Assembly: GCA_947631745.1 (NCBI GenBank)
Contig: CANRMM010000042.1
Coordinates: forward strand, 1 to 57,337
Length of the DNA stretch: 57,337 bases
Source of the DNA: an uncultured Clostridia bacterium
GTDB taxonomy: Bacteria; Bacillota; Clostridia; TANB77; CAG-508
Direction: 5' to 3'
Both the position numbers and the translations under genes were made by a program. How positions within the stretch are numbered: position 1 is the stretch's first letter; every line of letters begins with the position of its first letter. This document shows, piece after piece, positions 11,070 to 36,965 of the stretch. Under the pieces are notes generated by a model. That model was given only the letters and a program-made list of their open reading frames with translations. It did not search any database and had not been told where the DNA came from.

Positions 11070-11100
11070 ATTTCCTCCTTTTTCTAAAAAGCTATATAGT

Positions 11101-11624: not shown

Positions 11625-11641
11625 TTCGACGCTTTTCGACA
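11625..11641 (-). promoter_or_regulatory. Tandem Spo0A boxes
   Basis: TGTCGAA (11635-11641) and CGTCGAA (11625-11631), 10 bp apart, upstream of TTGCGT-17-TATAGT. Confidence 0.55.
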
Positions 11642-11672
11642 ATAGCATTTTTTCTTTTTTGATTAAAATATA

Positions 11673-11698
11673 AAAAGTATGGATGATTCCATACTTTT
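11673..11698 (-). terminator. Intrinsic terminator after murG
   Basis: aaaagtatgga-tgat-tccatactttt inverted repeat. Confidence 0.7.
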
Positions 11699-11763
11699 CC
11701 ATTTATTGTAAATTTTTTTATTTTCAAAAAGACAAATTTATTTTTTTATATTTAATTATATTT

Positions 11764-16742: not shown

Positions 16743-17033
16743 TTATTCTATTTTTACAGAGATATTACTTCCTTTATATACTTCAATTCCGTTAGTTGGT
16801 ACTTGTTCTTTTATGATTGCTTGCTCTTTATCTATTTCTTGTTCTGTATTAATCTGTAAGTTCAATTCATATTCTTTTAGAACTTTTTCTGCTTCCTTAA
16901 CTGTCATTCCTATAATTCTTGGCATTTCTATTTTTTCTTTTATATTTTCCTCGTTTTCATTGTCTTTACTAATTTCCAAATATGGTAGCACTTCTCCTAA
17001 CACTTGTGATGCAATTGGTGCTGCCACACCACC
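16743..17033 (-). CDS. spoVD: 3' segment of the split class B PBP (end of transpeptidase domain plus one PASTA domain)
   Basis: GGVAAPIASQVLGEVLPYLE...MPRIIGMTVKEAEKVL...EQVP; aligns with the intact paralogue (AGPVVGQILKEVLPYLG); no RBS of its own; continues the 34985-36846 segment in frame. Confidence 0.9.
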   Translation of the reverse strand, partial: GGVAAPIASQVLGEVLPYLEISKDNENEENIKEKIEMPRIIGMTVKEAEKVLKEYELNLQINTEQEIDKEQAIIKEQVPTNGIEVYKGSNISVKIE

Positions 17034-17057
17034 TCCTTGGTGTATTTTAACAACACA
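17030..17057. other. Recombination (att) site at the spoVD-3' end of element B
   Basis: Predicted crossover cc at 17032-33, 10-bp spacer, arm attttaacaacaca at 17044-17057 (perfect inverse of 24300-24313). Confidence 0.8.
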
Positions 17058-17066
17058 ATTATTTAT

Positions 17067-17106
17067 AAAAGGAGAAAAGCAAGGGAATTGCATTGCTTTT
17101 CTCCTT
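17067..17106. terminator. Terminator at the edge of element B, insulating the spoVD 3' fragment
   Basis: 14-bp stem aaggagaaaagcaa/ttgcttttctcctt with flanking A/T runs. Confidence 0.75.
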
Positions 17107-17121
17107 GCTTTTTAAAATGGC

Positions 17122-18159
17122 TTATTCGGCCGGGAAATACTCACTTGTGCAGAAATATTGATTATATATATGTCTATATATTGGGCCTTGAATAAATTCA
17201 GCTTGAAATACCAAATTTTTAGGTCCGATTGGTCCATCCCTTAAAAGTTCTTCTGCCCATTCATAAACTTCTTGCGGTACTTCCAATTGCCCACTTAAAA
17301 TCCGATCTCTTGTTATCTGCGCATAAGCATTACCTGTAAAAATAATACTCTGCATATCATCTCCACAAATTCCTAGTTCCAGCAAATGTAATAGAACACT
17401 TCCACAAAGTTTGTGTGCTTCTTTTGCTTCTTCGTAGTTAATTTGGTCAGTGTATTCACTCAAATAAATCAATACTCCTTCTTCGGCATACATAAGGTCA
17501 CCTAGGAGTTTGACATCGTCTGCTGTATAATTAAAATACGGTTCTATTGCTTCTGGAGTATCCGATGGCTTTACTGGTACATCTTCTTCTAGAACGTTTG
17601 ATGGCTCTATTGTCATGTCTTCATCTGGAACGTTTGTTGGCTCTGCTGGCATCTCTTTCTCTGGAGCATTCGTTGGATTTGCTGGTGCATTTTCCTCTGG
17701 AGTGTTCGTTGGATCTACCGGTGCATTTTCCTCTGGAGCGTTTGTTGGATCTGCCGGGGCATTTTCCTCTGAAACGTTTGATGCTTCTTTGTGGTCTCTG
17801 ACGTTTTCAGAGTCTTCGTTCTGGTCAACCGGATATATTCTTGCTGAATCGTCCGTATTGTTGATTGTGTTAACATTAGTGGAGGGTACAGTGTTGGGGG
17901 CTGTGGTCGGAACAGTGATAGTGTCGGCGAGGCTTTCGTCTGCTGTAGCGTCAGTGGTAATGGTGCTGTTGCTGTTGTTCTCTGAGTCTTCCTTGGAAGA
18001 TGTTACTGTTTTGATTCTATACACCATCATGGCTGTAGATAACATCGTAATCACAAGCAGGATTGCGATGCCGCTGTATCCTTTGCTTTTTGTCTTTTCC
18101 CTCACTCGCTTTCCCTTGTACCGCTTAAAACGGTTATTTCTCTTGCTGTCCTTCGTCAT
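17122..18159 (-). CDS. Membrane-anchored protein with repeat stalk and C-terminal SleB/Hydrolase_2-like domain
   Basis: Basic N-terminus plus TM helix, T/P-rich linker, YTADDVKLLGDLMYAEEG resembling the SleB catalytic-Glu helix; visibly GC-richer than its neighbours. Confidence 0.55.
   Translation of the reverse strand: MTKDSKRNNRFKRYKGKRVREKTKSKGYSGIAILLVITMLSTAMMVYRIKTVTSSKEDSENNSNSTITTDATADESLADTITVPTTAPNTVPSTNVNTINNTDDSARIYPVDQNEDSENVRDHKEASNVSEENAPADPTNAPEENAPVDPTNTPEENAPANPTNAPEKEMPAEPTNVPDEDMTIEPSNVLEEDVPVKPSDTPEAIEPYFNYTADDVKLLGDLMYAEEGVLIYLSEYTDQINYEEAKEAHKLCGSVLLHLLELGICGDDMQSIIFTGNAYAQITRDRILSGQLEVPQEVYEWAEELLRDGPIGPKNLVFQAEFIQGPIYRHIYNQYFCTSEYFPAE
17554..17769 (-). repeat. Six degenerate 36-bp (12-aa) tandem repeats, EENAPxDPTNxP
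   Basis: EENAPADPTNAP / EENAPVDPTNTP / EENAPANPTNAP / EKEMPAEPTNVP / DEDMTIEPSNVL / EEDVPVKPSDTP. Confidence 0.85.
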
Positions 18160-18340
18160 TTTTCTTTTCTCCTTTACTTTTGTTAGAGCTCATTTGTGCT
18201 CTATATATTAGGATGACATAATGTCTTCCTTTTTCCATTATACTATACTTTTTGAATTTAGGCAAATTTAATTGCTTAGTATTTTTCTTTTTAATCATTT
18301 ATATTTGTTAATAATGTTTTTTATTATATAGTTTATAGCT

Positions 18341-18380
18341 AAAAGATTCCTAAATTATGTATTATAATTTAGGAATCTTT
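18341..18380. terminator. Intrinsic terminator
   Basis: aaaagattcctaaattat/ataatttaggaatctttt inverted repeat after the 18386 gene. Confidence 0.75.
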
Positions 18381-18385
18381 TTTAC

Positions 18386-21300
18386 TTATTTTACTTTCTT
18401 TAATCCAATTAGTATTAATTTCATATCTGCCATATCTCCTATACCACATTCTTCATTTTTATCAAAGTCTGCAGCATTTGCTTTTGTTTTTGATAATTGT
18501 TCAACTTTAATAAGGTGTAACTTTAATCTAGCTAGGTCATTTACTGTAATTTTTCCGTCTCCGTCTATATCTCCTGTTACTTCAAGAGTAAATTGTGAAT
18601 TATCTGCTAATTTCATAGTTGTATCTGTAGTAATAAGGCTGTCATCAGTTAATACATTTCCTCGTGAATCAACAAATACAATATCTTGTTCTCCTTCTAT
18701 TTCTACATTTTCTTTGAATTCTTTTACTGTTGTTTTTGGAAGAATTTGTGATATATATCCTTCTTCTACTTTATATTTTTCTGTTTTTACTTCTTCTGGT
18801 GAACCTGGTATTCCTGTATTATTTTGTGAGTTTGGATTTCCCATTCCTGTTCCAATCCAGTTAACGCTTGCTGTTACTTCTCCTATATTTCCTGCTTTAT
18901 CTTGTAGTTTGAATGTAAATTCTCCATTTTGATCAAATGTATACGTATATCCTTCTTTTCCGTCTTTATTGTTTAGTACTGTTACTTCTTCACTAGGAGT
19001 TATTTCTGCTGTTACTTCAGAATCAATTCCACTTCCTGAATGATATTCAATTGTAGCTGTTGGTGCTGTTTTATCTATCCAATCAACTATAGCTGTAGCA
19101 GTTCCTTCTTTCTTTGTTTTGTTGTCATAAAATTCAAATGTAAATTCTCCGTTTTCTTCAAATACATATACATCACTATCGTGATTTGTAATTGTTATAT
19201 CTGTACTTGGATTTACAAGTCTTGCTATAACATTTTGGTTGGTTAATTTTTGTGTGTTATATCCAATGCCTGCTGTAGGATGAGGATTTTTTGTTAAGTC
19301 TTGGTAAATATTAAACATTCTACCTGTCATAAAGCTTCCTCCACCTGCTGATGATGTTTTAGTACCTATAATTTTAATATATTGTACTGTTGGTTTGTCT
19401 TCAAATTCTATTGTTTTTGTTTCTTCGTTATTATCCCATTTTACTGTTCCAATTTCTGTATATTCTTCTCCGTCTATACTTCCTAGGATTTGACCTTCTA
19501 AGATTTTACCGTTTCCTCCACCTGCTGGTACATAATCTAATGCTGATAATTCGATTTTTCTATCTACTTTAATAATAATATATCTTTCTTGGTCTGAACC
19601 ATTCCATGCTGAATGCCATCTTGTGTTGTAGTTTCCATCTATTACGTTTACTGCTTCTCCTTTATTGCCTCCTGTTGTTTCACTAGATACTCCTGCGATT
19701 GATAGATGTGCTACTGGTACGTATTTTCTTGTTTCTGGTTGATCGTCTGCTGTAAATGTATATGTTGTTATTTCACTTGCAAGCATTGTTCCTGTTGCAG
19801 ATTGTCTTACTTGTATTGTTTTATCTCCTGTTAAATCTGGAGATTCATCTTCATAAGAAATCCATTCATCTTCATCTGTGTAACGCCATTCTGTATGTTC
19901 ATTAACTCCTACTATTCTGTTTTCTAAATCATTATTGTATAGATCTGCTAATTTCTTTTGATCTTGTATATCTATTTTAAATATATTGTTTTCATCTTCA
20001 TAACTTGTTCCGTAAATGTGAACATAAATATCATCTTCTGCATTGATTTTACTTAGTTGTTCGTCTGTTAATGTTTCTTTATGTTCTTCCTCTGGTGTAT
20101 ATGTTACATCAATCCAAGTTTGTTTTCCATCTATACTATAATCCCAATGAATTCCTGAATCATCATAGTTGCTTGATAATACAATTTTTCCTGCATCTTC
20201 TCCATCAAATGAAAATGTTGCTAAGTCTTTGTCCATTTGTCCTAATAAATATTTTGCTACTGTTTGTGTAATACTTGGTTGATATACTTTAGTATTATCC
20301 TCCCATGTAGTTCCTTCTGTTAATGTATTTATTTGTAATACTGTAAATTTAAATGAGTATTCTGTTGATTTTAGCATTGGTTTAATTAAATTTGATAGTT
20401 GATACATTGGTAATGGGAAGCATTTTAAATTTTCACATATATCTTCTGCTAATTCATAATACTTTTCTTCTGATGTATTTTCATCTGCTTTATATAAATT
20501 AATTAAGCCATACCATGCATCTATATTAATTGGTTCAACTTCTAATGCTTTTCTATAAATTTCTTCTTGCTTTTCTGGATTGTCTTTATATATATCTGCT
20601 GTCATAATGATTTCTTCAGCTTCTTCGTAGCTTTCATAGTGATTTAATGCTTCTTGTGCTAATACAATATATGTTGCACAGTATCCTTCTGCATAGCTAT
20701 CACTACCCCAGCCTAAAGGCATTCTAACACTTAATTTTTCTGTTTTTCCAGATAATGCCCATCCACTTACGTCATTATCTATTGTCCAATATCCATTTCC
20801 ATCTTTATCTTTTCTATAATAAATTAATGCTGCGTGTCCTGGCTGACTAATTACTGATGATGGTGTTCCATGAACTCCACGTATATTAGAACCTATTTTA
20901 GAGATACCTCCACAAACGGCTCCTCCTTCGATGTTCATCCATAATTTATTAACACCTGGTCTAAATGTTACACCATATCTTAAAAAGTCATATTTATCAT
21001 CCCATTCTTCTTTCTTTGATTCATCATGAAATTCTGGTCTACTATAATCTGGGTCTAAATATTTCATATATGGATGTGGTTGTAAGTATTTTTCTTCTTC
21101 GTTTGGATGATCATTTATATATTTTTGTGTATATTCATTTAACCATACAATTTCTTCGTCATCTATGATGTTATTCATAACGAAACGCATTTCTTCTACT
21201 TTTAAGCTTTCAAACCATGGTGTATGGTCTTGATTTTTAGAAACTACGAACTTATCGTTTGCATGTAAATCTTTAAAAATTTCATAACGAGTTACAGGAT

Positions 21301-22366
21301 CTGATTGGTTTTCTGGGCTTGTTGTATCCATCCATAATGCTACTTGTGCAGAGTGTGTTAATGAAATTGTTATCATCATCTTTTTATATAATTCACCATA
21401 TACTGTACCATATTTTGTTTTATCTGTTCTTTCTAAATCTGCTTTATGCTTTTTATATAATTTTGCTAAAGCTTGTATTGATGATACGTAGTTTCCATCT
21501 GGCTCTCCACCTAGAACATAAAGACGTAAATTATCTACATCTGACATTAACCATCTTAGTGCTATTTCGTTATCTTCATCATATCTTGCTACAGCTTGTA
21601 AAATATCATAATCTGCTCTTCTTACTAATTCTCTTTGTAATAGTGTTAGTTCATGTTCACTTGTCATATCATCTACATCATAATTTTTTAGTTCTTTGTC
21701 ATATTCTTCTAATGTTTTTATGAAATCAACTTCTGATTCTTTATCTTCTACATATCCATCTTTAATTAGTTTAGCATCAGCGTAGATTGCTTCATCATAC
21801 CATTCTGCCCACCAATCTTTACTGTTGCTACTAGCTTCTAACTTTAGATATTTTACCCCTTTTATATTAACTTTAATTGGTTGTGCTTCACTCCATCCAT
21901 AGAGTACACCTGTTTCTGTTTCCTTTTCCCAATTCTTTCCGTCATTAGAAACGTATATATAGAATTTAACACCTGTATTAAAGTAGTTACTTTGTTCTCC
22001 AATGTCTACTCCAACATAAGCAGTAAAATAGTCAAAATCATAATCACTTATATTGTATACAACTTGTGATGATGCCCAAGCAGTAACTCCTTTTAAGAAT
22101 ACTTCTGGCTTATCATTTACTTTTAATGTGATTAATTTGTCACTATCATTTTTGTCTAATTTGATTAAATGTCCACTTGCTGCTTTTGAATTTTCTTCAT
22201 CATACGGAATATCTGACAAATACATTCTTTGATTATTGGTTGCTTTAACTGATGTGTAGCCTATTCCTTGTATTCCTAAAAATACGGCTAATACAAAGGT
22301 AAGGCAAATTGCTATTTTGAATAATAAGTTTGTCTTATCTTTTTTTATTTCTATATTTTCTTTCAT
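18386..22366 (-). CDS. Large secreted protein: NPCBM/NEW2, F5/8 type C (CBM32-like), Ig-like and dockerin-like domains
   Basis: Signal peptide; YLSDIPY...FTAYVGVD; IDGNYNTRWHS; WIDKTAPT; C-terminal GDIDGDGKITVNDL...ADFDKN duplicated Ca-binding motif. Confidence 0.75.
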   Translation of the reverse strand: MKENIEIKKDKTNLLFKIAICLTFVLAVFLGIQGIGYTSVKATNNQRMYLSDIPYDEENSKAASGHLIKLDKNDSDKLITLKVNDKPEVFLKGVTAWASSQVVYNISDYDFDYFTAYVGVDIGEQSNYFNTGVKFYIYVSNDGKNWEKETETGVLYGWSEAQPIKVNIKGVKYLKLEASSNSKDWWAEWYDEAIYADAKLIKDGYVEDKESEVDFIKTLEEYDKELKNYDVDDMTSEHELTLLQRELVRRADYDILQAVARYDEDNEIALRWLMSDVDNLRLYVLGGEPDGNYVSSIQALAKLYKKHKADLERTDKTKYGTVYGELYKKMMITISLTHSAQVALWMDTTSPENQSDPVTRYEIFKDLHANDKFVVSKNQDHTPWFESLKVEEMRFVMNNIIDDEEIVWLNEYTQKYINDHPNEEEKYLQPHPYMKYLDPDYSRPEFHDESKKEEWDDKYDFLRYGVTFRPGVNKLWMNIEGGAVCGGISKIGSNIRGVHGTPSSVISQPGHAALIYYRKDKDGNGYWTIDNDVSGWALSGKTEKLSVRMPLGWGSDSYAEGYCATYIVLAQEALNHYESYEEAEEIIMTADIYKDNPEKQEEIYRKALEVEPINIDAWYGLINLYKADENTSEEKYYELAEDICENLKCFPLPMYQLSNLIKPMLKSTEYSFKFTVLQINTLTEGTTWEDNTKVYQPSITQTVAKYLLGQMDKDLATFSFDGEDAGKIVLSSNYDDSGIHWDYSIDGKQTWIDVTYTPEEEHKETLTDEQLSKINAEDDIYVHIYGTSYEDENNIFKIDIQDQKKLADLYNNDLENRIVGVNEHTEWRYTDEDEWISYEDESPDLTGDKTIQVRQSATGTMLASEITTYTFTADDQPETRKYVPVAHLSIAGVSSETTGGNKGEAVNVIDGNYNTRWHSAWNGSDQERYIIIKVDRKIELSALDYVPAGGGNGKILEGQILGSIDGEEYTEIGTVKWDNNEETKTIEFEDKPTVQYIKIIGTKTSSAGGGSFMTGRMFNIYQDLTKNPHPTAGIGYNTQKLTNQNVIARLVNPSTDITITNHDSDVYVFEENGEFTFEFYDNKTKKEGTATAIVDWIDKTAPTATIEYHSGSGIDSEVTAEITPSEEVTVLNNKDGKEGYTYTFDQNGEFTFKLQDKAGNIGEVTASVNWIGTGMGNPNSQNNTGIPGSPEEVKTEKYKVEEGYISQILPKTTVKEFKENVEIEGEQDIVFVDSRGNVLTDDSLITTDTTMKLADNSQFTLEVTGDIDGDGKITVNDLARLKLHLIKVEQLSKTKANAADFDKNEECGIGDMADMKLILIGLKKVK

Positions 22367-22486
22367 GGTTACTCCTCCATTCTCTAATATTCCTATAGTA
22401 TTATATCATAAATAATCAAGTTTTGTACATATTTTCCAGTATTTTTTTACATTTTTTCTATATTTTTGTTAATCTTATTTTTTTAT

Positions 22487-24118
22487 TTAATTTTTAAATT
22501 TAAAATGTATAATAATTTTTTTGTTCTCGCATATTTCTATTGATTCTATTAGTTCTTCTATTATTGTTTTATCTAGTTTTATAATATTTTTTTGTTTTTT
22601 AAATTCTTCTATTTCTTTCATTTTTTCTTGTTTTATTTTTATTTCATTTTCATTTTCTTTTTCTATATTTTCAATAATTATTTTTAATTTTTCTATTTCT
22701 TGTTCGTAGTCTTTTTTATATAATATATATTCTTCTTTTGTTATGTCATTATTTTTCCAGTCTTGATATAGAGCTTTTTTTAAATTTTGTATTTTTTCTA
22801 TTTCTCTTTGCTTTTCTTTTAGAATGCTTATATTGTGATTTGCTATATCTGGAGTTTCTTGTAATTTTTTTACTATTGACTCTACATTTGCAAGGTTAGT
22901 AATTTGTTCTTGTATTGTTTGTAATACTGCCTTTTCTATCAGTTCTAACCTAATCGTATGTTTTGTACAAAGTTCATGAGATTTTTTTTGATATGTACTA
23001 CATATATAATATTGATATATTGTTCCAATTTTGTTTTTACTTGTTTTTTTGTTCATAGCTTTTCCGCAGTCTTTACATTTTATTTTTCCTGCCCATAAAC
23101 TTAGTTTTCCGTCTTTTTGTATTCTGGTATCTTTTTTTCTTATATCTTGTGCTTTTTCAAATAATTTTTTATCTATAATTGGTTCATGCATATTTTTTAC
23201 AGTAATCCATTCTTCTTCTGGTATTTGTTCTAATTTGTGAATTTTATAGCTTTTCACCTTACGCTTTCCTTGGGTTATATTTCCTATATATACATCATTT
23301 GATAATATTTTTCTTACTGTTGAAGTTGTCCATGAATAATCTTCTTGTTGAATATTATAGTTTTTATAATTTTGTTTTAATATTTTTCTTTTATATCCTG
23401 TTGGATTTAAAACTCCTATATCATTTAGTTTGTGGCATATTGATAGACATCCCATTCCTTCATTAACATACCAATTAAATATTTTTCTTACAATTTGAGC
23501 AGATTCTTTATCAACTATTAATTTGTGATAATCTTCTTTGCTTTTTATATAACCATAAGCTGGAAATGCTCCTACATATTCTCCTTTTTTCTTTCGTCCA
23601 TTTAATGCACTTCTTATTTTTAGTGAAGTATCTCGACAATATTCGTCATTTATTAAGTTTTTAAATGGTAGAAGAATTGTATTTGTACTATTAGGATCTT
23701 TATAACTATCTATATTGTCATTAATTGCGATAAATCTAATATCAAATAATGGAAATATTTGCTCTATATAATTTCCTACCTCAATATAGTTTCTGCCTAA
23801 TCTTGATAGATCCTTTACCAAAATACAATTAATTTTTCTATTTTTCATATCTTCTAACATTCTTTGAAATCCTGGTCTATTGAAGTCAGTTCCTGTATAT
23901 CCATCATCAATGTAATGGTCATAGAACTCTAAATCTTGATGTTCTTTTATATATTCTTGTAACAATGTTTTTTGACTTGTTATACTGTTGCTTTCTTTTT
24001 TTTCCTCTATACTATTATTATAATCTTCTTGTGATAGTCTTATGTATTCTGCAACTTTCCATATCTTATGGTCTGTTATTTTTATATTTTTTTCATATTT
24101 AGATTTTCTTCCTGCCAT
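22487..24118 (-). CDS. Large serine recombinase (LSR-B)
   Basis: YIRLS catalytic Ser, DDGYTG, KDLSRLGRN, AYGY, HEPII, CKDCG...C zinc ribbon, coiled coil. Confidence 0.95.
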   Translation of the reverse strand: MAGRKSKYEKNIKITDHKIWKVAEYIRLSQEDYNNSIEEKKESNSITSQKTLLQEYIKEHQDLEFYDHYIDDGYTGTDFNRPGFQRMLEDMKNRKINCILVKDLSRLGRNYIEVGNYIEQIFPLFDIRFIAINDNIDSYKDPNSTNTILLPFKNLINDEYCRDTSLKIRSALNGRKKKGEYVGAFPAYGYIKSKEDYHKLIVDKESAQIVRKIFNWYVNEGMGCLSICHKLNDIGVLNPTGYKRKILKQNYKNYNIQQEDYSWTTSTVRKILSNDVYIGNITQGKRKVKSYKIHKLEQIPEEEWITVKNMHEPIIDKKLFEKAQDIRKKDTRIQKDGKLSLWAGKIKCKDCGKAMNKKTSKNKIGTIYQYYICSTYQKKSHELCTKHTIRLELIEKAVLQTIQEQITNLANVESIVKKLQETPDIANHNISILKEKQREIEKIQNLKKALYQDWKNNDITKEEYILYKKDYEQEIEKLKIIIENIEKENENEIKIKQEKMKEIEEFKKQKNIIKLDKTIIEELIESIEICENKKIIIHFKFKN

Positions 24119-24134
24119 ATTTATCCCCCTTTAT

Positions 24135-24284
24135 TTATAGTATTTTTAATTTAAGTATTTCATATAGACAATCCTCTATTTTTTTATTATTTTTACTATA
24201 AACTACTTCCACTTGAATATTTTCTGTTTTTAATGATTTCTTTGTTTCTGTATTTTCTGAGGATTTATGCTTTAATTTTTTCAT
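24135..24284 (-). CDS. 49-aa ORF upstream of LSR-B, candidate directionality/accessory factor
   Basis: Not in the ORF track; GGGAGG RBS; MKKLKHKSSENTETKKSLKTENIQVEVVYSKNNKKIEDCLYEILKLKIL. Confidence 0.7.
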   Translation of the reverse strand: MKKLKHKSSENTETKKSLKTENIQVEVVYSKNNKKIEDCLYEILKLKIL

Positions 24285-24299
24285 TGTTAACCTCCCTTG

Positions 24300-24357
24300 T
24301 GTGTTGTTAAAATTCCATTATCACCTCCTTGTGTTACCAGTTTCTTATTGCAGTAAT
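24300..24357. other. Back-to-back att sites of elements B and A enclosing an 8-bp spoVD micro-segment (24324-24331)
   Basis: tgtgttgttaaaat -10bp- cc tcct tg -12bp- cttattgcagtaat; left arm pairs with 17044-57 (14/14), right arm with 34959-72 (12/14). Confidence 0.8.
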
Positions 24358-24368
24358 AACAAGAAATC

Positions 24369-24413
24369 AAAAAAAATCTATTTACTAATTAGTTTTATAG
24401 TAAATAGATTTTT
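24369..24413. terminator. Terminator at the end of element A, directly upstream of the orf49-LSR-B unit
   Basis: aaaaatctatttacta/tagtaaatagattttt stem; T-run on the - strand. Confidence 0.75.
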
Positions 24414-24429
24414 ATACTTTTTAAATATT

Positions 24430-25992
24430 TTACATTAAATTAATTTCTCCAAAAACATACCATTTGTCTTCTGTTTTGCCTTCGCTTCCTAATAAATATG
24501 TTGGTTTCTCATCATCGTCATTTTTATATAATCCTACTGCTAATTTATATTGTCCAGCATTTATCTCATTAAAATTAATTGATATTTTCTCATTTGATAT
24601 TATATCTGGTTGCCAATTTTTAGGATTTATATTTGTTTTATATTTTTTTATTAGTTGATTGTTTTCATCAAGAAGTCCTATATAAACACTACATGGTTCG
24701 TAAATTGGTGTAATTCCATCATTCTTAAAATCTAATATAATTTCTGCATCTTCATTTATAGCTACTTCATTTTTATAAGATACTTTCTTTAGTCTAAAGT
24801 AATATCCTAGTCTATTTGCAAGTTCCTTGCAATATTCTTGATTGTCATCCGCATACCATTTTTTATCAAGTTCAATATATGATGGTTTTGATATTTTAAT
24901 TGCTTCTTCTAATTGTGTATTAAACTGTTCTTTTGTATATTCTCCATAACTTTTAGCATATTCAAGTACAATTGGAAGTTTTCCATAAGCTTTTGCACAG
25001 TAATCTAAGCCGTTTGTATATGTTATAACTCCGTCTCTTCTTAATGTAACTCCTTCATCAATTAATTCTTCATAAACAGTATTAAATTTTTTTTCTCCCC
25101 ATGGAATTACTAAAAGAGTGTCTGGAAAAGCATTTATATATGGTCTTATATATTGTTCTTTTAGGAAATCTGGTTCTATTCTATCTTTCCAAGTATAATC
25201 TTCATCTACATTTCCTTCTTCATCTAAAGCATTTAATCCAAATAAATGTTGTTCACCATAATTTCCATATGATCTAATATCAATAAAGGCAATATCTGGA
25301 TCTCCATTATATTTTTCTCCTAATGCTTCTATGAATTTATCTAAGTATGTTAAAAAAATTTCATCTTCCCAATCGGGAATACATTGACCATTTTGAGATT
25401 CACGAAACTGTGCACCCTCATTAAAAATAAACTCTGGTGTTACATATCGTTCTGATGAAGATGAATTAGCACACATTACTCCAAAAGCAAATTTTTTATT
25501 ATATTGTTTGCAGTCTGCAATAGCAGCATCTATTAAATCAAAATTATAGCTATCTTTTGATGTTTGTATCTCTGTCCAATCAAATCTAGTATATACAACC
25601 TCTGACATATCTAAAATCTCTGGTGAAACTGAATTAAGTAGATTTTTTCCATCATATGTTAGTCTTCGTGCATAAAAAACAAATCCTTTTCCTGGGTTAA
25701 TTAGAACTTCATTATTATCTTGTATATTAACTGTTACCATACCATCTATTTCTTCATTTTTTGATCTGTTACCAGCAATTTCTGAATCTATTATGTTTAT
25801 TCCTGCTTTTTCCATTTCTTCTTCTTCTCTTGTTGCTTCATCTGTTAGTTCATCTGCTTTTTCTGCCATTGTTATGATACCGTTTTCTCCCCATACAGCC
25901 ATTATACTAATAGTAGCTAAAATTATAAGTATTATAATAGTTATGACTAATGCTATTAAAGTGATTCCTTTGTTTTTCTTTTTTGTTTTCAT
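24430..25992 (-). CDS. Type IV prepilin-like leader fused to a glycoside-hydrolase-like (DUF4832/beta-galactosidase-like) domain
   Basis: KKNKG|ITLIALVITIIILIILA leader; NPGKGF, RFDWTEIQ, GNYGEQH, LGYYFRL, NDGITPIY. Confidence 0.7.
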   Translation of the reverse strand: MKTKKKNKGITLIALVITIIILIILATISIMAVWGENGIITMAEKADELTDEATREEEEMEKAGINIIDSEIAGNRSKNEEIDGMVTVNIQDNNEVLINPGKGFVFYARRLTYDGKNLLNSVSPEILDMSEVVYTRFDWTEIQTSKDSYNFDLIDAAIADCKQYNKKFAFGVMCANSSSSERYVTPEFIFNEGAQFRESQNGQCIPDWEDEIFLTYLDKFIEALGEKYNGDPDIAFIDIRSYGNYGEQHLFGLNALDEEGNVDEDYTWKDRIEPDFLKEQYIRPYINAFPDTLLVIPWGEKKFNTVYEELIDEGVTLRRDGVITYTNGLDYCAKAYGKLPIVLEYAKSYGEYTKEQFNTQLEEAIKISKPSYIELDKKWYADDNQEYCKELANRLGYYFRLKKVSYKNEVAINEDAEIILDFKNDGITPIYEPCSVYIGLLDENNQLIKKYKTNINPKNWQPDIISNEKISINFNEINAGQYKLAVGLYKNDDDEKPTYLLGSEGKTEDKWYVFGEINLM

Positions 25993-26062
25993 TTTTTCTC
26001 CTTTATCTATTGTACAATTATTATTAATTGTATTATATATAATTTTATATTTCTAGCAAATT

Positions 26063-27583
26063 TTAAATAAAAGTAAATTTTTTATTATAAGCAATTTCTA
26101 TTTTATTTGCTTGATATATTTCTATTTTGCTTATCATTTCTTTTAGGAATTCATTTGTTATATATTTTCCTTTTTGAAATTGAAATACAATTTCTCTTAT
26201 TTTTTTCTTATCTAAATTTTGTTTATTTAATTCTTCAATTTGTGTTTTGTATTTTTCTATTTTTTCTTTTGCTTCCATATATCTTCTTTTAAATTCTTCT
26301 ATTGTTATATTACTTTCACATTTTTCTTGGTATAAAGTTCTTTTTCTTCTTTCAAGTTTTTCAATTTCTTTTTCGTATTTTTTTATTTCTTGCATATTTT
26401 TATCATTGTTTGTATAATAGTTTATTAGCTTGTTTTCGACTTTATCTGTTTCAATAGTATTTAGTATTTTTTTTACTTCATTTTCTATTATTGTATTTAA
26501 GTCTTTTTCTTTAATGCAATTTCCATTTTTGCATTTTTTCTTATAAAAATAATTACAAGTAAATTTTGCTCCATTACATAAATATTTTTGTTTATCTGAT
26601 GATTTATAGATTTTGTATTGTAGCTTTTTTTTACAATGTCCGCAATATACTAAATCTTTTAATAAAAATTCATATTTTATTTTTTGATTACCTTTCTTTT
26701 TTGCTTTTATCTCTTGTACTTTTTCATATATTTTCTTTTCAATAATAGCTGGATGAGTATGTTCTTTTATAATCCAGCTATCTTTATTTGAGTTTTTTTT
26801 ACATTCCTTTTTTATATAGTTTGTTTTATATTTATTCATTATTGTATTTCCTATATAAAATGGATTTGATAATATGTTATTTACTTGTTCCGCTTCCCAT
26901 TTTTTACTTGCATTTTTTAATTTCATATATCTACTTGGATTTTTTATTTTTTTTTGATTTAAATATTCTGCAATGTCATTTCCGGTTTTTCCGTCTATAT
27001 ACATTTCATATATTTTTTTAATATTTATTGCTACCTTTTTATCTATTATTATTTTATGTTTATCATCTGGTGCTTTCTTATATCCATAAGGAGCATAATA
27101 TTCTACAAATTTTTTTTCTTCTTTTATAGCTTTTTTATTTGCTTTTACTTTTTTTGATATATCTGCAATATATGCTTGATTTGCTATTCCTCGAAGCATT
27201 ATACTATCATCTATTTCATATCTTTCTCCACTATCTATAAATTCTGTTACTGATATAAATCTTATATTATTATCTGGGAAAAATACTTCTGTATACCAAC
27301 CTGTTTTATTTTTATCACGAGTTAATCTGCTTATATCTTTTACAATTACCATATTTATATTTCCTCTTGATATATCCATTATCATTCTATTTAGTGCAGG
27401 TCTTGAATTTAATATTCCTGAATATCCATTATCTATATATTCTTCTACTATTTTATATCCTTTTTTTATAGCATATTGTGTTGTAATTTGTCTTTGAGCT
27501 TCTATGCTATTATTTTCTTCATTATGTTCCTTTGATAATCTTAAATATATTCCAGCTCTATATTCTCTCACATTAAGCCACAT
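26063..27583 (-). CDS. Large serine recombinase (LSR-A2)
   Basis: YLRLS, DNGYSG, KDISRLTRD, PYGY, HPAII, CGHC zinc ribbon; overlaps the stop of LSR-A1. Confidence 0.93.
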   Translation of the reverse strand: MWLNVREYRAGIYLRLSKEHNEENNSIEAQRQITTQYAIKKGYKIVEEYIDNGYSGILNSRPALNRMIMDISRGNINMVIVKDISRLTRDKNKTGWYTEVFFPDNNIRFISVTEFIDSGERYEIDDSIMLRGIANQAYIADISKKVKANKKAIKEEKKFVEYYAPYGYKKAPDDKHKIIIDKKVAINIKKIYEMYIDGKTGNDIAEYLNQKKIKNPSRYMKLKNASKKWEAEQVNNILSNPFYIGNTIMNKYKTNYIKKECKKNSNKDSWIIKEHTHPAIIEKKIYEKVQEIKAKKKGNQKIKYEFLLKDLVYCGHCKKKLQYKIYKSSDKQKYLCNGAKFTCNYFYKKKCKNGNCIKEKDLNTIIENEVKKILNTIETDKVENKLINYYTNNDKNMQEIKKYEKEIEKLERRKRTLYQEKCESNITIEEFKRRYMEAKEKIEKYKTQIEELNKQNLDKKKIREIVFQFQKGKYITNEFLKEMISKIEIYQANKIEIAYNKKFTFI

Positions 27584-29129
27584 CCTTTAAAAAGTCATAT
27601 TTATAATATATATATATTTTATTGTCTTTATCTATTTCAATATCATATATAATTTCAGATACTATATCTAGATTCAATTTTTCCATATTTAACAATTTTT
27701 CTAATAGTTCATTTATCTTATTTTCTTTTATAGATGATTGATTAATTTGTTTCTTCTCTAATATTTCTAACTCATTTTTTATTCTGTTTCTTTCATTCCA
27801 TTTTTCTTTGTAATATTTTCTATAATCCTCTTCATCTAATAATTCCTGTTTAAAATCTATATATAATGTTTTAATTTCTTTTTCTATTTTTTCTAATTCT
27901 TGATTTAATAATTCTTGTTCTTTTTCTATTTTGCTTATTATTATTTCGTTTTGTTGTGTTGTTAATATCTCTTTTACTTTTTGGGGATTTATTATTTTCA
28001 TTTTTTCTTTTAGATTATTACAAATAATCTTTTGAAATGCTTCTTCATCTATCCCTTTACTTCCTTTAATGCATTCCTTTCCCTGATATTTTTTTAATCC
28101 ATTTAAGCAACATAATTTTCTTGATTTTAATTCTTTTGTATTATTTCTTTTATACTCAACTTTTAATGTCATTTTAGCTCCACATTCTTTACACTTTACC
28201 ATTCCATTTAGTTTCCATTCATGTTTTTTTCTTTTTATTGATTTATTAATGTTTATTATAGCTTGTACTTTATTAAAAAGCTCTTCTGTTATAATTGCTT
28301 CGTGAGTATTATATGCTACTTTCCATTCTTCCGGTGGAATATACTGCCTTTTTTTAGATTTATAACTTAAGTTTATTCTTTTTCCATATTCTGTATGGCC
28401 TAAATATACCTTATTTGATAGTATCCTTTTTATTGTTTCTTCTCTCCATTTATACTTTATTTCTACATTATTGTTATTATTTGGGCTTGGTATATTATCT
28501 TTCTGTAATTCGTTTATTATATCTATTATTTTTTCTCCTTTACTATATTCTTCATATATTCTTTTAACAATTCTTGCTTCTTTATTATTTATAATAAGTT
28601 TATGTTTATTCTTATTTGATTTTTGATAGCCATAAGGGGCCATTGATCCCATAAACATTCCTTTTTCTTTTCTTGTCCATATACTTGATTTTACTTTTCT
28701 TGAAATGTCTTTACTATACCAGTCATTGATGAGAGTTTTAAATTGTATCATATCATTATTTGCATTTTTTGTTCCTGTATCAACATTATCTAAAACTGAT
28801 ATATATCTTATATTTCTCTCTAAAAAATATATTTCTATGTAATAATTTGCCTCGAAACTATTTCTTGAGAGTCTTGATAGGTCTTTAGTTATGATACAAT
28901 TTATTGTTCCTTTTTCTATGTCTTCTAACATTCTTTGAAAATTTGGTCTGTTTGTGTTAAGCCCTGTATAGCCATCATCTATATAATTATCTACTATAAA
29001 AAATTCTTCTCCTAATTCTTCTACTTTTCTTTCTATTATATTTTTTTGACTTATTATACTATCGCTTATATCTTTATCGTCATCTTCCTGCGACAGCCTT
29101 AAATATGCTGCTACTTTATATTTTTTCAT
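27573..29129 (-). CDS. Large serine recombinase (LSR-A1)
   Basis: YLRLS, DDGYTG, KDLSRLSRN, PYGY, HEAII, CKECG. Confidence 0.95.
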   Translation of the reverse strand: MKKYKVAAYLRLSQEDDDKDISDSIISQKNIIERKVEELGEEFFIVDNYIDDGYTGLNTNRPNFQRMLEDIEKGTINCIITKDLSRLSRNSFEANYYIEIYFLERNIRYISVLDNVDTGTKNANNDMIQFKTLINDWYSKDISRKVKSSIWTRKEKGMFMGSMAPYGYQKSNKNKHKLIINNKEARIVKRIYEEYSKGEKIIDIINELQKDNIPSPNNNNNVEIKYKWREETIKRILSNKVYLGHTEYGKRINLSYKSKKRQYIPPEEWKVAYNTHEAIITEELFNKVQAIININKSIKRKKHEWKLNGMVKCKECGAKMTLKVEYKRNNTKELKSRKLCCLNGLKKYQGKECIKGSKGIDEEAFQKIICNNLKEKMKIINPQKVKEILTTQQNEIIISKIEKEQELLNQELEKIEKEIKTLYIDFKQELLDEEDYRKYYKEKWNERNRIKNELEILEKKQINQSSIKENKINELLEKLLNMEKLNLDIVSEIIYDIEIDKDNKIYIYYKYDFLKDVA

Positions 29130-29305
29130 AATTCAACACCTCTATTTTGAGATGTATATATTTGTGAAATTAAATACTTACATATTACATCATATAATTT
29201 ATCTATATTCTGTGCATTATCGGTGCATTTTGTTATTACAGTATATTTTTTATTATCTATTTCATACGTTTCTATGATGTGCTTTTTTTCTTTATTTTGT
29301 GTCAT
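29126..29305 (-). CDS. 59-aa ORF coupled to LSR-A1 (TnpW-like), candidate directionality factor
   Basis: Not in the ORF track; AGGAGG RBS; MTQNKEKKHIIETYEIDNKKYTVITKCTDNAQNIDKLYDVICKYLISQIYTSQNRGVEL; ATGA overlap with the recombinase start. Confidence 0.75.
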   Translation of the reverse strand: MTQNKEKKHIIETYEIDNKKYTVITKCTDNAQNIDKLYDVICKYLISQIYTSQNRGVEL

Positions 29306-29329
29306 ATATGTACCTCCTATTTCTTTTTT

Positions 29330-29358
29330 AAAATATTAGAGTTGTACTAAATTTATGA
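29330..29358 (-). promoter_or_regulatory. Putative sigmaE (mother-cell) promoter for orf59-LSR-A1-LSR-A2
   Basis: TCATAAA-14 bp-AATATTTT, close to the sigmaE consensus TCATAtt-14-CATAnnnT; AT-rich, so a chance match is possible. Confidence 0.45.
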
Positions 29359-29391
29359 CTATTTTTTTGTTATAAATATAGCTTTTATTGC

Positions 29392-29433
29392 AAAATAAAA
29401 TTCTAATTGAATATCAAAATCAATTAGAATTTT
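29392..29433. terminator. Terminator between the metal operon and the recombinase operon
   Basis: aaaattctaattga/tcaattagaatttt stem. Confidence 0.7.
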
Positions 29434-29455
29434 GTTTTTGGTTGATAAATATATA

Positions 29456-30286
29456 TTATTTATTATTTTTTGTATGAATTAGATAATAGGCTTCGAGTGT
29501 TATATAAAGAATTGATACTCCTATTAGGATTCCAATTATAATTTTATCTTCTGTTTTTAAAACTATAGGATATTCTTTTCTTAGTTCTTGTTTTAATTCT
29601 TTTATAGAATAATCACTTTTATTTTGTATTTCAAAAAAGTCAGACTTAAATTCACCTAAAACTTTAATTGTTTTAAAAGCTTTTACATCTGTAATGCTAA
29701 TTTCGCCTTGTTCTATTTTCATATTTCCATCAAAGCCAAACTTTGAAATGTCTATATTTTTTTCAGATAAATAAAATGGTGCTTTTATATTAACTTCTAT
29801 TCCATATGGAATTATATTGATGTCATCAGATAAAAAATCAAAGCAAAATCCTTGTTTATCTGTAAATTGCTTTACAAATGACTTTATAGTATATTTTATT
29901 TCATATACATGGAACTCAGACTTTTTTCCAGTCCAATTAATTACTATCCCCTCTTTATCTTCTACAAAGAATTTATTTGTTCTTTCACTCTCTGTTAATA
30001 TGTTCCAATCTGGTTCGTATGTATATTGTTCATTTCCTGTTTTTTCTTGAATAGTGATATTGGTTATTTGATTGATTGAAATGTTAGGAATATTTCTGTA
30101 ATATGTTGAATTATTAATTTCTGTAGTTGTCCATTCTTCTGTAATTTCTGCATCACCGTTTTCTTGAATATTTGCTTCTATTGTTATAAATTCTATAGAA
30201 TCTTGTAAATCAGCAAAGCTTTGGGGAGGTACTAATAAAGTTGTTAAAACGATAAAAAATATAATAAAAATTAATTTTTTTCTCAT
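29456..30286 (-). CDS. DUF2207-like exported protein with C-terminal TM helix
   Basis: Signal peptide; IEANIQENGDAEITEEW...YEIKYTIKSFV; TAATG overlap with the ATPase. Confidence 0.6.
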   Translation of the reverse strand: MRKKLIFIIFFIVLTTLLVPPQSFADLQDSIEFITIEANIQENGDAEITEEWTTTEINNSTYYRNIPNISINQITNITIQEKTGNEQYTYEPDWNILTESERTNKFFVEDKEGIVINWTGKKSEFHVYEIKYTIKSFVKQFTDKQGFCFDFLSDDINIIPYGIEVNIKAPFYLSEKNIDISKFGFDGNMKIEQGEISITDVKAFKTIKVLGEFKSDFFEIQNKSDYSIKELKQELRKEYPIVLKTEDKIIIGILIGVSILYITLEAYYLIHTKNNK

Positions 30287-32151
30287 TATTTTCTACTTCC
30301 CTTCCATTTTAATAGTAATGCTGAGTGAATTATAACGGCAACAGAACCACAATTGTGCACAATAGCTCCTTGCATTGGTGTAAGAATTCCTAACATTGAA
30401 AGTGTAACAAATACAACATTAATGCATAATGAAATAATTAAATTTATACGTATTGTTTTCATTGTCTTTTCAGATAAGTCAATTAAGTATGGTATTGTTT
30501 CTATTTTATCACTTATTAAAACAATATCTGCTGCATCTATTGCAATTCTACTTCCAAACTCTCCCATTGCTATACCAATATCTGCATTTTTTAGTGCAGG
30601 CGCATCATTTATTCCATCTCCTACCATACATACGGTTTTACTTGTAGTTTTTAAATCATCAATTATATTTAGTTTATCTTCTGGAATACATTCAGCATAA
30701 TATTTTTCAATTCCAGAAATATTAGCAATATTTTTAGCAGTTTGTTTATTATCTCCTGTTAATAAAATTGCATCAATTCCTTTTTCTTTAATTTGTGATA
30801 TTGTTCCTATTATTTCTTGTTTTATAGTATCTTCTAATGTTATGAAACCAAGTAGTTTTTCATTTTTGGACATATATACTATTGTACAACCTTTTTGAGT
30901 ATATTTTTCTATTTCTTTTCTTGTTGATTCACTTAGATTAATTCCATATTCTTCTAATAATTTTTCATTTCCTGCAAGAATTTTATCGTCTTTAATAAAT
31001 GCAGAAATTCCTTTTCCTAATTGTAATTTAAAATTAGTAATTTCTAATTGAGGAAATTCAATCTGATGTTCTCTTGCATACTTTACAATTGCTTTTCCAA
31101 TTGCATGTTCTGATTTACTTTCAACTAGTGCTAGTAGTGAAAAAAATTCTGTTTCTGAAACATTAGAATCCAAACATATAATATTTGTTACATCTGGTCT
31201 TCCATAAGTTAAAGTTCCAGTCTTATCAAAAATAACGGTCTTTGTTTTTCCTAAAGTTTCTAATACTTCTCCATTTTTTATTAAAACTCCTTTTTTAGTT
31301 GCATTTCCTACTCCTGCCATTATTGCTGTAGGTGTTGCTAAAATTAATGCGCAAGGGCAGAAAACAACTAAAATACTTATTCCTCTGACCATCTCTCCAG
31401 ATATTATCCAAGTTCCAATAGATAATAAAAATGCAATGATAACAAGAACAGTTGCCCATTTATCTGTTATTCGAATTACTTTTGCTTTCTTTAAATCATT
31501 TTTTTGTACCAAATTAATTAATTTTTGCAAAGAGCTGTCTTCCATATTTTTTGTAGCTTTCATATCGAAAGAACCTAATTGGTTAATAGTTCCACTATAT
31601 ACTTCATTACCTATTGTTTTATCAATTGGCATGTGTTCACCTGTCATAATAGCTTGATTTACAGATGTTTCTCCTTTTATAATTATACCATCTACTGGAA
31701 TGGTTTCTCCTGGGTTTACACGAACAATCATTTCTTCTTTTACTTCATTTGCAGGAATTATGATTTCTTTATTTCCTTCTATTATTCTTGCAGTATTAGG
31801 TAATAATTTTAATAGCTGATCTATGCTGTTCTTGGTTTTCTTGGCAGTTATATTTTCTAATATTTCTCCTAATTCCATTATGAATGCTACTTCTCCTGCT
31901 ACAAAAATAGCATTAATATAAATAGAAGCTATTAAAGCCAGAGAAACTAATACACCTGCTCGAATATCAAAACGAGTTATTAGTCCTATTATAGCATCTT
32001 TTAAAATTGGAGTTCCGCATAGAATAACAGCTACCCATGCAATATCAATTGTACTGTTAATTATGTTAAAAAAGCTTGCAATTAAGCATATTCCCGATAT
32101 AATAACATATATTATTTTTTGATTATCTTTGTCCAATAAAAAATTCTTCAT
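30286..32151 (-). CDS. Heavy-metal P1B-type ATPase without N-terminal HMA domain
   Basis: CPCALILATP, DKTGTLT, LLTGDN, GDGINDAP. Confidence 0.93.
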   Translation of the reverse strand: MKNFLLDKDNQKIIYVIISGICLIASFFNIINSTIDIAWVAVILCGTPILKDAIIGLITRFDIRAGVLVSLALIASIYINAIFVAGEVAFIMELGEILENITAKKTKNSIDQLLKLLPNTARIIEGNKEIIIPANEVKEEMIVRVNPGETIPVDGIIIKGETSVNQAIMTGEHMPIDKTIGNEVYSGTINQLGSFDMKATKNMEDSSLQKLINLVQKNDLKKAKVIRITDKWATVLVIIAFLLSIGTWIISGEMVRGISILVVFCPCALILATPTAIMAGVGNATKKGVLIKNGEVLETLGKTKTVIFDKTGTLTYGRPDVTNIICLDSNVSETEFFSLLALVESKSEHAIGKAIVKYAREHQIEFPQLEITNFKLQLGKGISAFIKDDKILAGNEKLLEEYGINLSESTRKEIEKYTQKGCTIVYMSKNEKLLGFITLEDTIKQEIIGTISQIKEKGIDAILLTGDNKQTAKNIANISGIEKYYAECIPEDKLNIIDDLKTTSKTVCMVGDGINDAPALKNADIGIAMGEFGSRIAIDAADIVLISDKIETIPYLIDLSEKTMKTIRINLIISLCINVVFVTLSMLGILTPMQGAIVHNCGSVAVIIHSALLLKWKGSRK

Positions 32152-32325
32152 TTATTCTTCATCCTTACTATATATAATTCCATTATGACTATGCCCTACA
32201 ATTTGTGTTAATCCACTTGTATCTTCTAAGTTTTTTTCTGAATTATCCCATATAGCTAAATATAGCAAAGTTCCTATAATTCCTATAGTTAATAAAAGTG
32301 ATAAGATTTTTTTGCATTTTTCCAT
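32152..32325 (-). CDS. 57-aa single-TM protein with HSH motif
   Basis: Not in the ORF track; AAGGA RBS; MEKCKKILSLLLTIGIIGTLLYLAIWDNSEK...GHSHNG...; stop abuts the ATPase ATG. Confidence 0.65.
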   Translation of the reverse strand: MEKCKKILSLLLTIGIIGTLLYLAIWDNSEKNLEDTSGLTQIVGHSHNGIIYSKDEE

Positions 32326-32342
32326 TTCTTTATCCTTTCTTT

Positions 32343-33065: not shown

Positions 33066-33077
33066 TTTTTTTCTCCT

Positions 33078-34881: not shown

Positions 34882-34958
34882 TGTTTTTTCCTCCTATTTT
34901 ACTTTCTTATAAGTATATCATATATAGCTTAATTTTTCCATATATGTTTTTTATCTTG

Positions 34959-34989
34959 ATTACTTCCATAAGCTGACACCTTCATGGTG
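34959..34989. other. Recombination (att) site at the spoVD-5' end of element A
   Basis: Arm attacttccataag at 34959-72, 12-bp spacer, crossover tg at 34985-86; PBP homology ends here. Confidence 0.8.
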
Positions 34990-36846: not shown

Positions 36847-36908
36847 TTTTCCTCCCTTCTGTTTTTTATTTTTTATATTTCTACTATTTTTTATTTTATT
36901 CATAGAGC

Positions 36909-36965
36909 AAAAAAAAAGACTAAAATATCTGAAATGAATTATTTTAATTATATTCAGATATTTTA
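36909..36965 (-). terminator. Intrinsic terminator between ftsL and spoVD
   Basis: taaaatatctgaa/ttcagatatttta stem followed by T9 on the - strand. Confidence 0.65.

Follow-up and report, generated by a model that had tools for sequence, protein, structure and literature searches.

Two stacked gene-intervening elements in a spoVD-like gene of an uncultured gut Clostridia bacterium, with a tentative order for their excision

The stretch of DNA analyzed here (the window, 57,337 nucleotides) comes from an uncultured rabbit-gut bacterium, and our main finding is that its spoVD-like penicillin-binding protein (PBP) gene, which lies in the dcw cluster, is split by two gene-intervening elements, called A and B in what follows, which are of the skin/gin kind, independent of each other and neither of them a phage. 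The gene is whole again only once A and B have both left. Each element carries large serine recombinases (LSRs), with LSR-B in element B and the overlapping pair LSR-A1 and LSR-A2 in element A, and each recombinase module is headed by a small open reading frame (ORF), orf49 in B and orf59 in A (Table 1). An earlier, sequence-only reading of the region had proposed that the removal of A switches on the recombinase of B. We find that excision of A followed by that of B is the best-supported interpretation, even if we hold it with less than even confidence; it is favored because the LSR-B module is promoterless and shielded, and because the junction between the two elements is chimeric. The observations at the base of this argument are the anatomy of the locus, the exact in-frame restoration of the gene, a promoter block that is missing here and a chimeric attachment (att) site.

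Both elements are inserted in the same Gly-rich codons of the spoVD-like gene. Removing A in silico at its two CA copies gives a 634-residue truncated product (spoVD') that ends in QGGDNGILTTHKGG and is followed by the stop codon TAA, the dinucleotide CA and the ATG of orf49. In other words, after the loss of A the stop codon comes after the GGGAGG ribosome-binding site (RBS) and 2 nt before the start of orf49, exactly as had been claimed. Removing both A and B gives a 718-residue protein, which aligns in one piece with five intact orthologs at 70-72% identity, and in 26 of the 30 loci of the genus that were read the PBP is uninterrupted across the site (GGHQGGGVAAP). The crossover of A falls at the CA dinucleotide and that of B, judging from the symmetry of its arms, probably at GG (24325-24324), approximately 6 bp away, and towards the foreign element, each crossover is left with only 6-8 bp of host DNA. 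In particular, to the left of the B crossover there are 6 nt of spoVD and then the arm of A, and therefore the left attachment site of B (attL-B) has no host half-site until A leaves. The ends of B themselves form a 13-nt inverted repeat, and the two copies would be separated by 22 nt in an attP centered on GG.

What, then, precedes the recombinase operon of B? The ATG of orf49 lies 37 nt past the left junction of B, a distance taken up by the att arm and the RBS, and orf49 is read in the same direction as spoVD. Moving upstream from it, one meets the RBS, the conserved 13-nt att arm of B, a 10-nt spoVD remnant, the right arm of A, a hairpin and, finally, the stop codon of the last gene of A, which encodes a DUF4832 protein. 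The statement that orf49 and LSR-B are preceded only by att DNA and the hairpin of A is thus correct, the att DNA amounting to approximately 85 nt. In both the minimum-free-energy and the centroid folds, the hairpin consists of a 16-bp A/U-rich stem followed by U8, and a separate scan gave -10.1 kcal/mol for its 11-bp core; a GC-based terminator scan, which needs three G-C pairs, does not list it. The "strong terminator" of the sequence-only reading is therefore borne out as regards the hairpin and the U8 tract, whereas its strength is unproven.

As for a promoter, the region 24285-24368 contains a single minus-strand sigma-70-like match, TTAACA-16-AACAAT (9/12), whose second hexamer overlaps the orf49 ATG; the power of such a scan is low in AT-rich DNA, with 53 matches in 22000-30000 as compared to 63.3 +/- 8.5 in shuffled sequence. 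In approximately 10 distinct B-type elements of other genomes, a conserved promoter-like block (TTGTAATAAAAC..AGAATAAAATTGAA) stands ahead of the small ORF or the LSR, and this block, when looked for in the window, was absent. Since it is kept in relatives and missing here, the claim that there is no convincing promoter ahead of orf49 is more than an impression, and we concur with it. In the relatives, the block upstream of orf49-LSR (e.g. L058 10188-10260 and L142 1244-1310) contains two short palindromes, ACAAnTTGT and, in some copies, AAAATTG..CAATTTT, and it may be an operator besides a promoter. When compared by eye with the region upstream of spoIVA in this genome, the B-type block (TAATAAA-13-AATAAAAT), the box upstream of orf59 (CATAAATT) and the spoVD box can all be read as sigma-E-like; these readings are only suggestive, and our argument does not rest on them.

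The interrupted gene itself deserves a comment. Its 5' fragment belongs to an ORF at 34960-36984, with the start probably at 36846, and its top NCBIfam match is TIGR02214 (spoVD_pbp), at 527 bits as opposed to the 688-bit cut-off for an equivalog. An intact ortholog (L020) has the same top match, at 580.4 bits over profile positions 4-632 of 636, and it too stays under 688. It is for this reason that we call the gene spoVD-like. It occupies the spoVD position (ftsL-PBP-murE), with one PASTA domain, and it would be a spore-cortex cell-wall gene with a presumed role in sporulation. The naming is complicated by another SpoVD-like PBP of class B, this one with two PASTA domains and encoded at 42239-44536 upstream of the dcw cluster (minus strand, as are all the genes discussed here), which scores 540.6 bits against spoVD_pbp, also under the cut-off, and which may be the division PBP. 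In Bacillus subtilis, spoVD is sigma-E dependent. Here, a hairpin with T9 follows ftsL, and therefore the spoVD-like gene is its own transcription unit, with the TGAATAAAAT box as the putative -10 element of its promoter. The gene is interrupted in about a fifth of the genomes of the family, and must hence be dispensable for growth. The host has Spo0A, SpoIVA, SpoIIGA, SpoIIID and SpoIIIAA. In some related genomes the 5' part of spoVD is frame-broken, either together with insertions (G013:C5, G018:C106, G019:C7 and G053:C172) or without any (G015:C14 and G020:C164, the latter with 8 stops), which means that the gene is decaying in certain species, or else that the metagenome-assembled genomes (MAGs) contain errors.

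Turning to the recombinases, LSR-B starts 204 nt from the left junction of B, matches the Pfam families Resolvase, Recombinase and Zn_ribbon_recom and has all the invariant columns of a 14-sequence alignment; it is 39% identical to LSR-A1 and 31% to LSR-A2. The motif YIRLS/YLRLS recurs across the three LSRs. Both LSR-A1 and LSR-A2 have it as YLRLS and match Resolvase and Recombinase, with the zinc-ribbon domain of LSR-A1 not reaching a Pfam E-value of 0.001. For 20 of 33 B-type LSRs, a small orf49-like ORF is found at most 330 nt upstream, and the alignment of this family has five invariant columns and a conserved C-terminal motif. By likeness to GirX, SprB and CD1234, orf49 is a candidate directionality factor. 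The predicted complex of orf49 with residues 190-543 of LSR-B, in which at least 89% of contacts are shared between runs and the pLDDT (predicted local distance difference test) of the partner is at least 62, weakly supports this: it scores 0.59 as opposed to 0.00 for the best control, in a benchmark where 58 of 80 solved complexes, but also 2 of 110 mismatched pairs, attained the mark, and where scores of 0.60 or under accounted for 7 of the 80 solved complexes and for both passing mismatches. Between orf49 and orf59 there is no similarity (BLASTP E 3.6), and searches of Pfam and PHROG gave no family for either. As for element A, orf59 is conserved beside the A-type LSR pair, and the A operon stands behind its own terminator-like hairpin and a TCATAAATT box that is shared with genome G053, and it could therefore fire independently. 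Its TCATAAATTT box is possibly a mother-cell-type -10 element.

Table 1. Coordinates of the features of the spoVD-like locus in the window.
Feature	Position	Strand	Basis
spoVD-like PBP 5' fragment (PBP dimer and transpeptidase domains)	34960..36846	-	runs 8 codons into element A
spoVD-like 3' fragment (transpeptidase end and one PASTA)	16743..17042	-	domain matches, ortholog comparison
Hairpin and T9 after ftsL, terminator-like	36909..36964	-	kept in most of 29 aligned genus loci
TGAATAAAAT box upstream of spoVD (relatives TGAATACAAT)	36893..36902	-	alignment of 29 upstream regions
attL of A, crossover dinucleotide CA at 34986-34985	34962..34992	-	comparison with intact orthologs; homologous left end in L083
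Element A, 10,655 bp including one CA	24332..34984	-	CA copies 34986-34985 and 24331-24330
Terminator-like hairpin (29391-29430), then TCATAAATTT box (29349-29358), upstream of orf59	29349..29430	-	box shared with G053
orf59 (29126-29305), LSR-A1 (27573-29129) and LSR-A2 (26063-27583), overlapping operon	26063..29305	-	domains, alignment
DUF4832 gene (24430-25992) and sigma-A-like promoter TTGCTA-16-TATAAT (26059-26032), aimed at element B	24430..26059	-	Pfam, promoter scan
A/U-rich hairpin and U8, terminator-like end of A	24369..24413	-	fold and scan
Chimeric att site: P arm of A (24354-24332), spoVD core CAAGGAGGTG (24331-24322), P' arm of B ATTTTAACAACAC (24313-24301)	24301..24354	-	comparison
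GGGAGG RBS of orf49 (24296-24291) and latent spoVD' stop TAA (24289-24287)	24287..24296	-	sequence
orf49 (24135-24284, candidate directionality factor) and LSR-B (22487-24118, 543 aa)	22487..24284	-	domains, alignments
Element B unique DNA, 7,279 bp	17043..24321	-	ortholog comparison
attR of B: P arm GTGTTGTTAAAAT (17056-17044), then 13-nt spoVD repeat (17042-17030)	17030..17056	-	sequence

How widespread is this arrangement? Homologs of LSR-B (E at most 1e-130), which define the B-type, are found in 84 of 401 genomes of the family and in 30 of its 50 genera, and the B-type attL motif (spoVD core, 8 nt, arm) is found in 36 of the 401 genomes, with no match for its reversed control. Among the left ends of 30 fetched B-type loci, 25 adjoin native spoVD, 4 an A-type arm and 1 probably an A arm. 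The A-type, taken as LSR-A1 identity of approximately 60% or more, comprises 32 of the 80 related loci returned; the LSR pair is conserved in all 32, nearly all have both an orf59 homolog and an LSR-A2, and where the spoVD 5' part is of full length, it gives one unbroken match in 9 of 10. The right junction of the A-type loci is readable in 28, showing native spoVD in 17 and a B arm in 11, and the other 4 gave no match. Judging from these sequences, both element families are specific for this spoVD site. On a tree of LSR-A1, rooted in an outgroup-containing set of this genome and 23 A-type loci (of the 32, those with an LSR-A1 split in two, 5 in number, and the 4 whose junction was unresolved were omitted), the tandem label changes 8 times, at least 5 of these changes being forced by well-supported branches, and shuffled labels change 8.4 times on average, with 271 of 500 shuffles as low. 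Since the label does no better than when shuffled, tandems must arise or be resolved frequently, and one recombinase system at least must be able to act on a chimeric site. The sister of this genome's LSR-A1 on the tree is that of G053, which has the same junction between A and B, and in the closest relative, G019 (94% identity in the spoVD 5' part), a B-type element sits alone in spoVD.

Misassembly as the origin of the tandem was ruled out by the recurrence of the same junction type in 11 other A-type loci and in 4-5 of the 30 B-type loci. The interval 23000-26000, with the junction inside, is also fully present (word share 1.00) in contigs from four runs of one rabbit-gut sample, which is possibly the source of the window DNA, and the match is thus no independent support. 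The order in which A and B arrived cannot be read from half-site similarity, the foreign arms being unlike either native arm. The remaining related loci (approximately 50% identity to LSR-A1) form another clade, with a member in a cwlD-like amidase gene of genome G001: in locus L060 (G001:C3), at approximately 8238-11951, an A-like LSR pair (approximately 50-53% identical to LSR-A1 and LSR-A2) lies directly next to the 3' part of this gene, which encodes a cwlD-like N-acetylmuramoyl-L-alanine amidase. This clade of paired LSRs thus also targets another cortex/sporulation gene.

The B-type modules of other genomes are arranged in several ways. An orf49-like ORF lies within 700 nt of the B-type left end in 3 of the 30 loci (this genome, G342 and G070). 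In G342, where a lone B provides the natural counterpart to the tandem, orf49-LSR begins approximately 47 nt after the spoVD' stop, with neither block nor hairpin in between; in G070, a terminator and the module's own upstream region come before orf49; and in G110 attL is followed by a terminator, then by the block, orf49 and the LSR. In L083 (8304-20151), a single spoVD 5' fragment is followed by a stack of three recombinase modules, namely a minimal LSR pair in translational overlap with the truncated spoVD frame, a further orf59/LSR-A1-like unit and a B-type module with its own promoter block. An independent parallel is the minimal, A-like element of L083, where the spoVD' frame enters the tail of orf59 and ends at a TGA that overlaps the ATG of the LSR.

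Excision of A before B would proceed in three steps. With both elements in place, the LSR-B operon would have no promoter of its own and would be shielded from upstream transcription by the terminal hairpin of A. The operon of A would then fire, presumably in the sporulating mother cell, and A would excise. Subsequently, the native attL-B would be rebuilt, with orf49-LSR-B placed directly behind the spoVD promoter and the truncated frame, and finally B would excise, leaving spoVD whole. Here, each step of expression and excision, the sigma factors involved and the order itself are what we infer. One can take the argument further, into more doubtful territory, and view the locus as a two-stage relay, in which the loss of A would act as a transcriptional switch, the terminator being gone and the spoVD promoter and frame being joined to the promoterless orf49-LSR-B, and at the same time as a substrate switch, the attL of B being rebuilt from a chimeric site. 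If so, two serial DNA rearrangements would delay the synthesis of SpoVD and amount to a built-in developmental timer, and some elements (this B, the B of G342 and the minimal element of L083) would have lost promoters of their own and hijacked that of the gene they interrupt, tying excision to the moment when the host needs that gene. Of the coupling and ordered cascade proposed in the sequence-only reading, the anatomy and the missing promoter thus stand, whereas translational coupling comes down to a coincidence of spacing and a good RBS.

That said, several points weigh against an ordered excision. Conservation of the coupling is lacking, as the B elements of the tandems G053/L066, L068, L073 and L083 have retained a promoter block, and the terminators between attL and the module in G110 and G070 make insulation from spoVD the norm of the family. 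The coupling of LSR-B to spoVD is hence specific to this genome and no family rule. Other B elements stop the spoVD' frame at varied places, with no sign of selection on the spacing between stop and ATG. The hairpin is A/U-rich, and the sigma-A-like promoter of the DUF4832 gene, 1.7 kb upstream, is aimed at it, such that leak could express LSR-B with A present. What is more, weak or alternative-sigma promoters can hide in AT-rich DNA, and there is the one weak match at the orf49 ATG. The right attachment site of A (attR) is chimeric too, its native host arm missing, and the att logic alone therefore fixes no order; had B arrived second, excision of B first would be the natural one. In the sister tandem, G053, the spoVD 5' part lies in three frames, meaning that arrays can be dead ends, or that the MAG contains errors. 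Finally, the interrupted gene scores under the NCBI cut-off for SpoVD, and the sigma dependence of spoVD in the host organism is something we infer.

Could both elements then excise in the mother cell independently, in any order? In that case, LSR-B would be made through terminator leak from the genes of A or from a weak or alternative-sigma promoter in the att region, the chimeric half-site would be tolerated and the spacing would be coincidental. On the LSR-A1 tree, loci switch freely between the tandem and the single state, which indicates that chimeric sites are used in nature; both would-be intermediates are stable elsewhere, A alone in 17 loci and B alone in 25; and the sigma-A-like promoter aimed at the hairpin as well as the varied spoVD' stops, which give no sign of selection on the spacing, fit in with such a view. 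What speaks against it is that the promoter block of the relatives is missing here, that a hairpin with U8 sits exactly between the last gene of A and B, and that so little host DNA is present on the foreign side of each crossover. On balance, we regard independent excision as possible, even if rather unlikely. Another possibility is that the array, or B at least, is frozen, with the loss of the promoter a sign of decay, spoVD permanently off and the site a safe harbor without developmental excision. Frame breaks in the spoVD 5' part of G013, G018, G019 and G053 (with insertions) and of G015 and G020 (without), split LSR-B homologs in G009 and G018, the second SpoVD-like PBP and the lack of a recognizable way for the B circle to express its LSR could all be explained in this manner. 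However, neither the two spoVD fragments nor the three LSRs nor the small ORFs orf49 and orf59 show a break here, the host retains the core sporulation genes, 9 of the 10 A-type loci with a full-length spoVD 5' part have it unbroken, and frame breaks in MAGs are possibly assembly errors, all of which makes a frozen array improbable in our view.

Could B be the first to leave? This would be the case if B had integrated beside a resident A and crippled its attR, the sites of B being as they were formed, with LSR-B expressed by read-through from the operon of A. The attR of A indeed has no native host arm, just like the attL of B, A alone is the commoner state among the A-type loci (17 of 28), and orf59-LSR-A1-LSR-A2-DUF4832 and orf49-LSR-B are co-directional. 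However, a terminator-like hairpin separates the two modules, B is promoterless, and lone B elements are frequent in the genus, including the one in G019, so that an A invading a resident B is at least as likely. We therefore consider excision of B first very unlikely and, among these possibilities, prefer excision of A followed by that of B.

The closest known system is perhaps to be sought among the intervening elements of sporulation genes. According to the cited portions of the literature, gin interrupts gerE in Bacillus cereus ATCC 10987 and encodes the LSR GirC and the 42-residue directionality factor GirX (PMC5595907). As in that account, a small, non-prophage, cargo-bearing element with an LSR and a tiny conserved partner ORF splits a gene, a mother-cell gene there and presumably here, and exact excision restores the frame; by contrast, girC and girX are described there as transcribed on their own in sporulation (PMC5595907), whereas B is promoterless here. 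What is more, the target here is a spoVD-like PBP gene, and there are two unrelated elements in tandem, one of them with an LSR pair. In the portions cited for skin in sigK (SpoIVCA in B. subtilis; CD1231 with the recombination directionality factor CD1234 in C. difficile) and for SPbeta in spsM (SprA/SprB), an LSR reconstitutes a mother-cell gene, as is presumed here, and the timing is set by when the recombinase or the directionality factor is made, which is in turn governed by the element's own sigma-E/SpoIIID or sigma-E/K promoters (PMC5025042, PMC6957869). What is proposed here differs in that the promoter of the interrupted gene would be captured and a second element would serve as a gate. 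To our knowledge, every intervening element studied takes its timing from its own sporulation promoters. Our literature search, with supplements containing tables of intervening elements outside it, found no report of an interrupted spoVD and none of promoter capture by an intervening element; in the cited portion of a preprint by Galperin, spoVD appears merely in a list of conserved genes.

Other stacked or paired systems invite comparison as well. SCCmec elements carry the paired serine recombinases CcrA and CcrB, which recall the two adjacent, overlapping LSR genes of A, but the NCBIfam scores are far from the respective cut-offs (114-116 bits as opposed to 900 for CcrB, 50 as opposed to 700 for CcrA), and the target and the biology differ. 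Integrative and conjugative, integrative and mobilizable, and cis-mobilizable elements (ICEs, IMEs and CIMEs) reportedly undergo tandem accretion, in which elements are stacked at one target gene with a hybrid internal att site. In that case, however, the elements share one att core and have related integrases, whereas here the recombinases are 31-39% identical, the crossover dinucleotides differ and lie 6 bp apart, no core is shared, and the host gene must be rebuilt. A closer parallel as regards order are satellites of the phage-inducible chromosomal island (PICI) type embedded in a late gene of their helper prophage: in the portion of the work cited, the interrupted unit can be expressed only after one element has excised, and order is imposed in cis, but the elements are nested and not tandem, the setting is that of phage, satellite and tyrosine integrase, and no recombinase hands over to another (PMC10111431).

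We consider two aspects of the locus new, namely that two unrelated LSR systems are repeatedly found stacked in a single gene at a distance of 6 bp, and that a promoterless recombinase operon lies directly behind the gene that is interrupted. In many uncultured gut Clostridia, two unrelated recombinase systems must both act within 6 bp to rebuild a single gene, and in the present genome it appears that the promoter of the interrupted gene drives the second recombinase, with the first element as a gate. If true, this would be a natural serial recombinase circuit, similar to those built synthetically with integrases of the Bxb1 or PhiC31 type. The locus also supplies two compact sets of integrase and partner, with att sites readable from genomes, and can serve as a test bed for the length of half-site that a large serine recombinase needs.

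As to the wider setting, the window is the entire contig C42 of a MAG that is approximately 80% complete (1.16 Mb in 48 contigs) and whose genus consists of small, AT-rich gut Clostridia. By Pfam, the gene order begins with mraZ, rsmH, ftsL, the class-B PBP 5' fragment, CbiM/CbiQ/ABC, a P-type ATPase and DUF2207, continues with orf59, the overlapping LSR-A1 and LSR-A2, DUF4832, orf49 and LSR-B, and ends with a 1326-residue NPCBM/F5_8/dockerin protein, orf345, a 116-residue PASTA ORF, murE, mraY, spoVE/ftsW and murG. A search of the whole window against Rfam returned no family at the gathering score, and hence no known riboswitch or other RNA in the att region or ahead of cbiM. A metagenome scan with a 27-nt pattern of the exact G000-type left end of B gave 0 matches.

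The cargo of A comprises a CbiM/Q/O-type energy-coupling factor (ECF) transporter, the P-type ATPase, DUF2207 and DUF4832. The DUF4832 gene with its own promoter, placed between LSR-A2 and the right arm of A, is apparently peculiar to this genome; in other A-type loci, the right arm follows LSR-A2 after approximately 50-150 nt. Element B carries the NPCBM/F5_8/dockerin protein (18386-22366), orf345 (17122-18159) and a terminator-like hairpin (17067-17106). The NPCBM/F5_8/dockerin surface-protein gene is a recurrent cargo of the spoVD elements (here and in L110, L065, L066, L068, L045 and L046): it is found in B-type elements of this genome, G019, G013 and G053, whereas in L110, an A-type locus, it comes after the spoVD 5' part and before orf59. 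Finally, orf345, the last gene of B, which has no Pfam or PHROG family, contains five tandem copies of a 36-nt unit (17552-17803), corresponding to 12-residue repeats.

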